64,000 bases of DNA from Vicugna vicugna. Lineage: Eukaryota. Positions 29,711 through 34,669 of this stretch are shown piece after piece. Location of the stretch: the NCBI GenBank assembly GCA_013265495.1, contig MU058065.1:7750302-7814301 (forward strand). Direction: 5' to 3'. The position numbers and the translations under genes are program-made. How positions within the stretch are numbered: position 1 is the stretch's first letter; every line of letters begins with the position of its first letter. Below the pieces are notes generated by a model. The model was given only the letters and a program-made list of their open reading frames with translations. It made no database searches and had not been told where the DNA came from.

Positions 29711-31138
29711 TTCTTAAATGAGGCACTCTGATTTTTTTTCTCCTTTACTGTTAAGTAGACTTGAGAAGGAAAAAGGAAGTTGAAAAAAATCTGCGAGAAC
29801 AAAAACCAATAAAAGGGTGGGAGCGAGATCTCCCAATGTAGCCAAAAGATGTGTGTGAACTTTAGACAGAACTTTGCTGTCAGTATTGAGAGCCAGGAGG
29901 ACTTGTGAACTTGAGGAATAAAATATTCTCTTCCTATTCTCCTGCTTGAATTGGTTTAGAACGAGACAGTCATGAAAGCAGGAGAGAGGATTAGATGGCT
30001 CCCAAGGAGAAGAGCTCCCCAAAGCAGCAGGGCTCTGGTCCTAGATGTGCAAGCTTGCCTACCCCAGGAGGGCCTTCTGCCTCTCTCAGACATGGGTGAA
30101 TCCCATGCGAAATGCAAGCGTCCTAGCAATGTTAGTATCCTGGCTTAAGGAGCTCTTACTATGTGATGCCTGGAAAGTAACAGTTTGACCAAAAAGACAA
30201 AAAAAAAAAAATCCAGAAAGAGAGATAAATGGGGCAGGGGGGCCTGTGTAGGGAGGAGAATAGTTCCCCCATCCCCAATGCACCTGGCGAAGCCTCTGCC
30301 CTCAAGGGACCACTCCTCCCCCCTCCCCACCAGCTGGTGTTTTCCCATCTGCCCCCAGCCTGGCCCCAGGCCACAGACGTGGGGAGTGATGCCTATCCTG
30401 GAAGGATCTCTGCAGATGCTATTTTGATAAGACTCTAATCCTTTCCCCTCCCCTTCTCCCCCTTAACCTCTCCACCTCCAGCCAAGGCCTTTGTGTGTTT
30501 GTGTGCCTGCGTGTTTGGGGAAGGGGGTGGGATGGAGGACAGGGTAGCTTAATAACCAGCAAACACAGGCTCTGGTTTCATGGGGTGGATTAATGTGGTG
30601 AAGTGGCTGCCTGGTCCCAGCTATTGGAGCCAGGTAGAGGCTGAAGGAACAGGTTTCCTTGTCTGGCTCTCAAGCCTCTGGAAACATAACACGAGAAGAG
30701 GGGGTTGGATGGAACACTGCTGTTGATGCATCAAAAATCTTCCTCTAGGTGTATAAATAGAGATTTCATCTTCCTTCCCTACCCCACCCCCATAGAATTG
30801 CCAAATAAAATAGCATTCAGTGTAAAATTTGTATTGCATGTCAAGAGCAATGCATGGACCATACTTATACTAAATAAATATGTTTATATAAATATAAAGG
30901 TATGTATGTATCTGTACATATGTACGTATTCAGTGACATTTGCATAGGCTCAGATGGAAAGTTAGTGCCCAATCATGGCACATTAGTCCACATGCCTGGG
31001 GATTTGTGTCACAACAAGAAATGTATCCTCTGAAGAAATCATCCTGCTCCCCTCTTGCATGGAAAGGAGAGAAGTCATGAGATTGAGCATAATGTTGGAT
31101 TGGTGGCAAGTGCAAGGATGCATCAAGAAGCCATTGGA

Positions 31139-31216
31139 AAGACTATACTTTCAGGGATCATTTCTATAGTTCGTTACTAGAGAAGTTTCTCTGAACGTAT
31201 AGAGCACCCAAACCAC
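31139..31216 (+). pseudogene. SNORD3-like: U3 snoRNA 5' fragment (nt 1 to ~70-78), 5' part of a U3-L1 chimeric retrocopy
   Basis: AAGACTATACTTTCAGGGATCATTTCTATAGTTCGTTACTAGAGAAGTTTCTCTGAACGTATAGAGCACCCAAACCAC is nearly identical to the recalled mammalian U3 5' end (boxes A' and A plus hinges). Confidence 0.95.
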
Positions 31217-33566
31217 ATGATCATCTTAATAGATGCAGAAAAAGCATTTGATAAAATTCAACACCCATTTATGATAAAAATTTTCACCAAAGTGGGTATA
31301 GAGAGAACATATCTCAACATAATAAAAGCTATATATGACAAACCTACAGCCAGCATAGTACTCAACAGTGAAAAACTCAAAAGCTTCCCACTAAAATCTG
31401 GGACAAGACAAGGCTGCCCACTATAGCCACTCCTATTCAACATAGTATTGGAAGTCCTAGCCACAGCAATCAGGCAAGAGAGAGAAATAAAAGGGATCCA
31501 AACTGGAAAAGAAGAGGTAAAATTTCACTATATGCTGATGACATGATACTAGATATAGAAAACCCTACAAGGTCCACACAAAAACTGCTAGAACTAATCA
31601 AAGAATACAGCAAGGTATCAGGCTACAAGATTAATGTTCAAAAATCAGTTGCATTTCTTTACACTAATGATGAATCAACAGAAAAAGAAAGTAAAGAAAC
31701 AATCCCCTTCAAAATAGCACCCAAAGTAATAAAATACCTAGGAATAAATCTAACCAAGGAGATGAAAGTCTTATACATGGAAAACTATAAACAACTGATG
31801 AAAGAAATTAAAGAAGACTTAAAAAATGGAAATATATCTCATGCTTCTGGATTGGAAGAATCAATATTGTTAAAATGGTCATACAGCCCAAGGCAATCTA
31901 CAGATTTAACACAATCCCTATCAAATTACCCAGGACATATTTCACAGAACTAGAACAAATCATAATAAAATGTATATGGAACCACTAAAGACCTAGAATT
32001 AGCAAAGCATTATTGAAGAAAAAGAAAGAGGCTGGAGGAATAACTCTCCCAGACTTCAGACAATACTATAGAGCTACAGTCATCAAGACAGCATGGTATT
32101 GGTCCAAAAACAGACATATGGATCAATGGAACAGAATAGAGAGCCTAGAAATGAACCTACAAACTTCTGGTCAACTAATCTTCAACAAAGGAGGCAAGAA
32201 TATACAATGGAATAAAGACAGTCTTTTTGGCAAATGGCATTGGGAAAACTGGACAGCAGCATGTAAATCAGTGAAGCTAGAACACTCCCTTACACCATAT
32301 ACAAAAATAAACTCAAAATGGATCAATACTTAAACATAAGACAAGATACAATAAACCTCCTAGAAGAAAATATAGGCAAAAACATCATCTCACATACATC
32401 TCAAAAATGTTCTCCTAGGGCAGTCTACCCAAGCAATAGAAATAAAAGCAAGAATAAACAAATGGGACCTAATTAAAATTACAAGCTTCTGCACAGCACA
32501 GGAAACCATAAGTAAAACAGAACGACAGCCTACAGAATGGGAGAAAATTTTTGCAAATGAAACCGACAAAGGCTTGATCTCCAGAATATATAAGCAGCTC
32601 ATAAGACTTAATAAGAAAAAAACAAATAACCCAATCCAAAAATGAGCAGAAGACCTAAACAAGCAATTCTCCAAGGAAGAAATACAAATGATCAATAGGC
32701 ACATGAAAAAATGCTCAATATCACTAATTATCAGAGAAATGCAAATCAAAACTACAATTAGGTATCACCTCACACCAGTCAGAATGACCATCATTCAAAA
32801 GTCCACAAATGACAAATGCTGGAGAGGCTGTGGAGAAAAGGGAACCCTCCTACACTGCTGGTGGGAATGCAGTTTGGTGCAGCCACTGTGGAAAACAGTA
32901 TGGAGATTCCTCAAAAGACTAGGAATAGACTTACCATATGACCCAGGAATCCCACTCCTGGGCATATATCCAGAAGGAGCCCTACTTCAAAATGACACCT
33001 GCATGCCAATGTTCATAGCAGCACTATTTACAATAGCCAAGACATGGAAACAGCCTAAATGTCCATCAACAGATGACTGGATAAAGAAGCTGTGGTATAT
33101 TTATACAATGGAATACTACTCAGCCACAAAAACCAACAACATAACGCAATTTGCAGCAACATGGATGCTCCTGGAGGATGTCATTCTAAGTGAAGTAAGC
33201 CAGAAAGAGAAAGAAAAATACCATATGAGATCGCTCATAGGTGGAATCTAAAAAAAGAAAACACAAACAAAGCATAAATGGGAAACAGAACTAGACTCAT
33301 AGACATAGAATACGAACTTGTGGTTGCCAAGGGGGCGGAGGGTGGGAAGCGATAGACTGGGATTTCAAAATGCAGAATAGATAAACAAGATTGTACTGTA
33401 TAGCACAGGGAAATATACACAAGATCTTGTGGTAGCTCACAGTGAAAAAAAAGTGTGACAATGAATATATGTATGTTCGTGTATAACTGAAAAATTGTGC
33501 TCTACACTGGAATTTGACACAACATTGTAAAATGATTATAACTCAATAAAAAAGAGTTTAAAAAAA
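31210..33566 (+). mobile_element. Young 5'-truncated L1 (ORF2 from the RT domain to the C-terminus, 3'UTR, A-tail), inactivated
   Basis: [33 protein letters not shown] at 31531-31542, zinc knuckle [21 protein letters not shown]2 stop at 33249-33251, AATAAA at 33545; stop at 31424-31426 and frameshifts; TSD AAGCCATTGGAA at 31128-31139 and 33567-33578. Confidence 0.97.
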
Positions 33567-34669
33567 AAGCCATTGGAACAGGTTGTACAGCAGGTACATG
33601 ACCTGTATCTCTTCCTGGCTCCCCCTCAAGTCCCCATAGTCATCATAGTAAGTTCCACAAAATAAGTTTTACTGCAAGACAAAGAGACTTATGGAGGGGT
33701 GCAAACTGTAACCAAGTCACAGGCACAGGCACACAGAACATTCCAGCATCTTTCCAGAAGTCACTCTGTATCTTAATCCCCTTCACCTTTCCCCATATTC
33801 TAATCCTTTCTGAGTTCATCCCTGGCCAGTCAAGAAATCTGTTAACATCTCCTGGATTCCTTCTACTTTTGTGTTTGGTCCAAAGTGAATGATTCTCAAC
33901 TCCCCGGGCCATTTGCAGTCTATAGATTCCTTTCGGTCACTTTCCTTCTTTCAAGTCCCTAGTACCCTCTTCACTAAACACTAGAACTCCAGGCCTAAGT
34001 CCCTGAGACAGGGACACTCCTGGAGCAGCCCTGGTCTCACAATATCACAGAAGATGATGCCCTCCTCTTCACCATCAAACTGTTTTCCTTGTATGTGGCT
34101 AACATGTTTCTACTGTCCCTTCTACTGTCATTATTCTCTCCTCCCCTCAGTGCCCTTCCACAGAATCATTGTCTTTGGTCTAACGGTCCAACCCAAAGTC
34201 TTACTTATTGCCAGCCACATCCAAGAAAGTCACATGACTGATGTCTTAGACAAAGAGATGGAGCCTTGAAAGGGTCACTGGAAAGGCTCTCCAAATGCAC
34301 CTATAGCAACATATCCCCTCAGGTTATCTCCGTTGGTCCAAATTTCTTTTTTAACCAACAACTTTTAGTATTTTTCTCCTAGGCAATTAGTATATATAAG
34401 CTAATGGAGGCAAATTTGGTCACCGAGGGAAACTCTGTTCTTACAGGCTTATATACCCCCCTATAAATATTGCAGTAACATTCATTTATTTGTTTCTATT
34501 TATTCCATACACATGTAGCATTGAGGTCCCACAATGTACCAGTCTCCTGATGTAACTCTTAGAATTGTGTGTTTAGCACAATGACTACTGAGGAGATAAC
34601 AAATCTGTGAGGGTCAAAGACACAAATGCCATCATGCCTTCTGTAAATCCCAGCCTTGCTTATATCCTT

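Follow-up and report, generated by a model that had tools for sequence, protein, structure and literature searches.

A U3 small nucleolar RNA–L1 chimeric retrocopy enclosed by a single target-site duplication in the genome of Vicugna vicugna

The element considered here is a composite retrocopy that occupies positions 31128–33578 of a window of 64,000 nucleotides (nt), the window being the whole stretch of DNA that was analysed, taken from contig MU058065.1 of the Vicugna vicugna assembly GCA_013265495.1. The window was read on the + strand and all positions are those of the 64-kb stretch. The composite consists of the 5' part of the U3 small nucleolar RNA (snoRNA) and a truncated long interspersed element 1 (L1), both of which lie on the + strand, with U3 placed 5' of L1 and starting at its own nt 1. 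An exact 12-nt repeat, AAGCCATTGGAA, is found at 31128–31139 and again at 33567–33578, and thereby encloses the whole of the U3 and L1 sequence; GCATCAAG forms the end of the left flank and CAGGTTGTACAG the start of the right flank. The final A of the left copy of this target-site duplication (TSD) also serves as U3 nt 1, and the repeat search gave a longer version of the terminal pair, at 31125–31139 and 33564–33578, in which 15 nt correspond apart from a single mismatch.

Within the duplication, U3 nt 1–71 are found at 31139–31209 and are followed at 31210–31216 by the heptamer AAACCAC, which is present in both parents, as nt 73–79 of U3 and as part of open reading frame 2 (ORF2) of L1. From 31217 to 33251 the sequence is an L1 ORF2 remnant, consisting of seven open pieces in three frames, which extends from the middle of the reverse transcriptase domain to the ORF2 stop codon. 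The L1 3' untranslated region (UTR) then runs from 33252 to 33550, with the signal AATAAA at its very end (33545–33550), and leads into an A-rich tail at 33551–33566, which reads AAA GAGTTT AAAAAAA and is thus interrupted by GAGTTT. The right copy of the TSD follows directly. This is the anatomy that the initial annotation had described, including the single TSD around both U3 and L1, and the sequence reads as it had claimed, with the exact 12-mer at both outer ends.

The identity of the U3 part is supported by a match to the Rfam U3 family (RF00012), which begins at 31139, directly within the end of the left TSD copy, and has a score of 57.3 bits (E 5e-11) against a gathering score of 34. It is one of three matches above the gathering score that Rfam returned for the 64-kb window. 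The alignment is good only over model positions 1 to about 80, and what lies beyond consists of gaps. For a genome-wide comparison the 78-nt U3 fragment was used as a query against the window's own genome (G000, 2.03 Gb in 12,405 contigs), which gave 36 matches, of which 30 were taken as loci. When set against the 215-nt U3 gene of this same genome, the fragment spans nt 1–79 with an identity of 97.5%, so that a start from the first nucleotide of U3, as originally proposed, is confirmed. There are two differences from the U3 genes, namely a G>A change at 31199 (U3 nt 61) and the loss of one G (U3 nt 72), which is absent just before the heptamer. Among the U3 genes, L003–L005 have the same 60-nt upstream flank and L006 has a similar one, and the upstream flank in the window is unrelated to these. 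Because the U3 sequence starts at nt 1 and its upstream flank is unlike that of the U3 genes, the fragment was copied from RNA and not from gene DNA. Nor does it have the make-up of a functional U3 gene, since it holds only nt 1–79 of about 215 nt, lacks the 3' domain and is preceded by a flank that differs from those of the genes.

The frame that starts from 31181 translates into L1 ORF2, and two of the five ORF pieces tested match the Pfam family RVT_1, one over profile positions 66–125 (E 1.6e-9) and the other over 146–205 (E 4.2e-8). As the RVT_1 matches begin at profile position 66, the L1 sequence must start in the middle of the reverse transcriptase domain. The remnant is therefore a 5'-truncated element of about 2.35 kb, which reaches its own 3' end and an A-rich tail and lies in the orientation of U3, as had been stated earlier. 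The L1 family to which it belongs is abundant: a genome search with a 204-nt query taken from just past the joint yielded 2934 first-look candidates, 40 of which were scored, and the 39 besides the window's own place were 96–98% identical over the 204 nt. Thousands of contigs that represent further members of the family diverge from the window at 33552/33553, where they pass into A-runs. Judged by its sequence, the composite is a dead retrocopy without predicted function, because it has neither the 3' domain of U3, to which boxes C and D belong, nor the sequence that precedes the U3 genes, and because ORF2 is both truncated and broken. The window also contains other L1 3'-end fragments, at 47717–47827 (−) and 5215–5890 (−); one such fragment is 95.5% identical to the L1 of the chimera over 111 nt, and the others are older, with identities of 69–84%.

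The point at which U3 passes into L1 was examined against 20 rows of sequence from 19 related L1 loci and against the U3 genes. The latter read ...GCACCCGAAACCAC/GAGG where the window reads ...GCACCCAAACCAC/ATGATC, and the window tracks the U3 genes as far as ...GCACCC, the L1 copies from AAACCAC onward and only L1 from 31217. The heptamer AAACCAC is present in 18 of the 20 related L1 rows, and AAAAACCAC stands ahead of ATGATCATC in 17 of the 20. As both parents contain AAACCAC, the joint has to lie within it or at its edge. None of the 20 related rows has U3 sequence upstream of the joint, so the 78 nt are not part of the consensus of the L1 subfamily, a possibility that the initial annotation had named as fatal to its proposal. 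The joint is likewise unique among U3 copies, since none of the other U3 matches (36 in total) continues into the same L1 position. It contains no A-tail and no second duplication, as judged from the repeat search and from an alignment in which the window was set beside two of the U3 genes and two copies of L1.

An overlap of at least 7 nt would be encountered by chance at 3.5e-4 of all U3 × L1 junction pairs, or at 4.6e-4 if a skip of 1 nt is allowed. In the consensus fold of the Rfam U3 model, positions 76–80 pair with the 3'-terminal positions 215–219, and the CCAC of the window aligns to positions 77–80, from which it follows that the overlap covers the segment of U3 that normally binds the 3' end of the same RNA.

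The 12-nt repeat would be unremarkable if taken alone, as other chance direct repeats of 11–14 nt (D5–D8) occur within the same 2.9 kb. It is the placement of the repeat that goes beyond chance, with one copy abutting U3 nt 1 and the other abutting the end of the A-rich tail. When the sequence of the left flank was used to look for a paralogous empty site, none was found; the window itself was the sole match genome-wide, and this flank is thus single copy. A single insertion is favoured because the joint is unique, the left flank is single copy, one repeat encloses the whole composite and there is no internal tail or duplication. With a probability of roughly 0.85, the sense U3 fragment (nt 1–71 or 1–79) and the 5'-truncated 2.35-kb L1 within one 12-bp TSD are the product of a single event of L1 target-primed reverse transcription, likely with a switch of template from L1 to U3 at AAACCAC. 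Such a one-event origin had been suggested at the outset, and it gains support from the position of U3 nt 1 at the left repeat, the shared orientation, the bare joint and the L1 tail at the right repeat.

The anatomy is observed directly, and from it both the template switch and the following order of events appear likely. The L1 endonuclease would nick the bottom strand where the 12-mer, later duplicated, has its left boundary, after which the exposed T-rich end would prime on the poly(A) of the L1 RNA. Synthesis of complementary DNA (cDNA) would then proceed back through the 3' UTR and ORF2 up to the K-N-H codons (AAACCAC), where the 3' end of the cDNA may have annealed to the same heptamer in U3 RNA (nt 73–79), with copying continuing from there to U3 nt 1. 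The end so produced would finally be joined to the target through a 1-nt overlap (A).

A number of observations do not sit easily with this account. The preference of the L1 endonuclease is for TTTT/AA, whereas the bottom strand would have been nicked at GGCTT/CTTGA if the duplication is 12 nt long, which is a poor match, or at CTTCTT/GA if it is 15 nt long, which is closer but brings in one mismatch. The boundary of the duplication is hidden by the A-tail, and hence the endonuclease site is not pinned down. No empty orthologous site was seen. The sharing of the insertion with other organisms, which is described below, concerns the L1-side joint only. The overlap itself is not clean, in that a switch within AAACCAC predicts CCCGAAACCAC and the window has CCCAAACCAC, in which G72 is absent, so that the switch needs either a slip as it took place or a later deletion of 1 nt. 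Moreover, the other three U3–L1 joints in this genome overlap by only 0–2 nt (by eye), which means that a long overlap is not the rule.

The same anatomy, with one duplication, sense orientation and a direct joint, would also be generated if the two RNAs had been fused before insertion, by an RtcB-type ligase that joined a cleaved U3 5' fragment to cleaved L1 RNA, followed by one ordinary L1 retrotransposition. RtcB ligation of the 2',3'-cyclic phosphate end of U6 has been demonstrated for U6/L1, and ligation was left open for 3'-truncated chimeras of U1, U3, U5 and 5S if an endonuclease makes a suitable end (PMC6789731). U3 is not known to bear a 2',3'-cyclic phosphate end (PMC6789731). Ligation further predicts no overlap, and so the 7 nt that match the L1 side here, a chance event at about 4e-4 of junction pairs, count against it; what keeps ligation alive is the loss of the G that should border the overlap, through which the joint can be read as U3 nt 1–71 bluntly joined to L1. 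Fusion at the level of RNA is considered unlikely, and the 7-nt overlap favours template switching over RNA ligation.

The composite could in principle have been built by two independent insertions, either of a 5'-truncated L1 first and a truncated U3 later at its 5' edge or in the reverse order. Truncated solo U3 copies are indeed common, accounting for 21 of the 29 other loci, and a reading of the flanks places two of them (L016 and L030) within L1. Solo U3 fragments, however, bear their own 9–11-nt duplications at both ends, whereas the U3 part in the window is without such a repeat and the only terminal repeat encloses U3 and L1 together; a second insertion would also need to have landed within 1 nt of the edge of the first and in the same orientation, and a history of this kind is highly improbable. 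The presence of U3 fragments inside L1 copies at L016 and L030, again from a reading of their flanks, could alternatively point to a source L1 that already held a U3 fragment in its ORF2 and whose transcript was 5'-truncated on retrotransposition. This is scarcely credible because, out of several thousand positions, the truncation would by coincidence have to hit the very one that corresponds to U3 nt 1. Moreover, none of the other loci in the set of 36 U3 matches has the joint, and U3 is found at this place in none of the 20 related L1 rows.

Origin of the window element in a single L1 retrotransposition would be in keeping with chimeras of small RNAs and L1, U3-L1 included, which the initial annotation had rightly treated as a known class. 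U3/LINE-1 chimeric retrocopies of the human genome are associated with Buzdin et al. 2003, as cited elsewhere, and Law and Burns (PMC11838501) catalogued 253 candidate human chimeras, 8.5% of them with U3, and 22 U3/L1 insertions, which retain about 30% of the full length of U3 and of which 95.5% have it in the sense orientation. Doucet et al. 2015 (PMC4476161) described the U3 chimeras as 3'-truncated, and internal template switching was proposed there for 3'-truncated U5 and U3 chimeras. As in the human U3/L1 chimeras, the small RNA in the window is 5' and sense, L1 is 5'-truncated and continues to its own tail, one duplication surrounds both parts, and U3 has been cut to about a third (71–79 of 215 nt in the window, compared with about 30% in human; PMC11838501). 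The window element differs from those chimeras in the genome that carries it and in the L1 family involved. Its joint has a 7-nt overlap between U3 and L1, a feature that is not mentioned for human U3/L1 chimeras in the main texts concerned, where "microhomology" occurs 0 times (PMC11838501) and "microhomolog" 0 times (PMC4476161). The element fits the documented U3/L1 chimera class in every respect tested. It also resembles the U6/L1 chimeric pseudogenes, in which a small nuclear RNA and a 5'-truncated L1 have been inserted once by the L1 machinery and are flanked by a TSD; in these, however, the whole of U6 is present and the joint lies at its natural 3' end, whereas U3 in the window is cut internally and has an overlap at the joint.

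A related class is that of the truncated solo U3 pseudogenes, which Bernstein, Mount and Weiner reportedly explained in 1983 by self-priming. These pseudogenes reportedly end near nt 70–74, beside an ACCAC segment that pairs with the 3' end of U3, and it is in the region of U3 nt 73–79 that the classical truncated copies would have been self-primed. The window element is like them in holding only the 5' part of U3, from nt 1, but they are without L1 or an A-tail whereas the window copy is continuous with L1. The solo U3 fragments of the present genome end mostly at nt 33–63, in contrast to nt 70–74 for the classical ones. It may tentatively be suggested, although the idea is less likely than not to be correct, that the growing L1 cDNA, whose last bases were complementary to AAACCAC, paired with U3 nt 73–79, that one priming site is shared by U3/L1 chimeras and truncated solo U3 pseudogenes, and that annealing-guided switching, and not RtcB ligation, lies behind the 3'-truncated chimeras. 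If true, the shared priming site would bear on the question of switching versus RtcB ligation that was left open by Moldovan et al. 2019. As an inert retrocopy of a documented class, the element matters little as a locus. It may serve as a clean insertion marker common to at least four organism labels of the group, it shows that U3 chimeras arose more than once from the L1 family of this lineage, as they did from human L1, and its 7-nt overlap is one natural data point for template switching over RNA ligation in 3'-truncated small-RNA/L1 chimeras.

The age of the insertion was approached through the divergence of its L1 part. A first alignment, of the window locus and 19 relatives, gave unusable distances, several loci being interrupted or truncated, and the divergence alignment was made with 11 collinear copies (the window and 10 relatives) over about 1.55 kb, from which L033, L036, L038, L042, L043, L044, L046, L047 and L049 had been dropped. 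Of the 1550 columns compared, 52 show a substitution private to the window L1 copy (3.4%), for which a star-tree estimate is 4.3%, and the private divergence of the 10 collinear relatives ranges from 0.4% to 5.8%, the youngest copies compared having 0.4–0.9%; all of these figures are upper bounds because differences of the source elements are included. With 3.4–4.3% in the window and relatives down to 0.4%, the window copy does not come from the youngest wave. The description of the copy as young thus holds only in part, its private divergence being about 3.4–4.3% and some related copies being much younger.

The distribution of the locus was followed in sequencing runs from several organisms. 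The left flank was present at 0.97 or more of sampled words in 20 of the 24 listed runs, which represent five organism labels and seven studies. For the right-hand side, over the compared interval 33440–34400, one contig each from runs X2, X4 and X13 (organisms B, C and D) passes from the L1 end through the tail and the right copy of the repeat into 760–820 nt of unique flank. These contigs reach 42, 42 and 37 nt into the L1 side and have 0, 1 and 4 differences in all. As the contigs of B, C and D bridge the L1 tail into the right flank, at least four organism labels have the insertion in common. Over the bridged stretch, 4 of 871 positions differ between organism D and the window, so that the insertion likely predates the split of these organisms. 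Among the loose ends listed for this interval, beyond which there were 559 more, none was indicative of an empty allele. In run X21 (organism F) coverage was limited to 9 of 30 bins, did not include the unique flank and has no bearing on presence or absence. The GAGTTT-interrupted A-tail (33551–33566) is unchanged in the bridging contig of organism B, which indicates that the interruption is old.

Among the 29 other U3 loci examined in the genome, 8 are full length (L002–L006, L009, L011 and L021) and 21 are truncated. The search for U3 5' fragments fused to L1, which had been put forward as a check on the window element, identified at least three further direct sense fusions, L008, L015 and L018, each with a joint that differs from the others and from that of the window, and the process therefore recurs. 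L008 (G000 C12391:1956920-1957550) combines U3 nt 1–90 with about 520 nt of an L1 3' end that is partly masked as N; it has a 12-nt duplication, AGTCATTTCTCA, and no overlap at the joint by eye. L015 joins U3 nt 1–52 to about 310 nt of L1 3' end. In L018, U3 nt 1–42 are followed by an old L1 that is recognised through a weak tblastx match only (48% over 25 amino acids, E 1.5e-5). No convincing flanking duplication was found for L015 or L018 with one mismatch allowed. A tblastx search for hidden L1 sequence in the 400 nt downstream of other truncated U3 loci was negative for all 11 of them.

Other kinds of truncated U3 copy are found as well. L017 (nt 1–47) and L020 (nt 1–75) are U3 fragments fused to short non-L1 sequence with AATAAA-like signals and A-tails, within 9-nt duplications, and they resemble fusions of U3 to polyadenylated RNAs other than L1. 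The loci L016, L023, L025, L026 and L030 are solo U3 5' fragments without an A-tail and with 9–11-nt duplications directly at both ends, and L012 is a tail-less solo 5' fragment with a near-perfect duplication (by eye); these tail-less fragments, L012 included, end at nt 38–63. Over all the truncated copies, 13 of 21 end at nt 33–47, near the end of the first hairpin (Rfam model positions 1–41).

Five of the full-length U3 copies, 215–216 nt in length, are clustered on G000 contig C1896 at 155928–176859 (L002–L006), where they are spaced 4.6–5.8 kb apart. Four of these are 96–100% alike, three of the four having identical upstream flanks, and L006 is about 91% identical. L002–L006 probably constitute the array of functional U3 genes.

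The Rfam matches to mir-297 (32.1 bits, gathering score 90) and mir-562 (22.6 bits, gathering score 100) were rejected as chance matches, that to mir-297 falling on TA/TG-rich sequence. Two transfer RNAs, for Ala (AGC) and Val (AAC), are predicted at 20844–20915 (−) and 54070–54141 (−), with Rfam scores of 46.3 and 51.3 bits and concordant ARAGORN predictions; they are candidates only, each of which may be a gene, a pseudogene or the head of a tRNA-derived short interspersed element.

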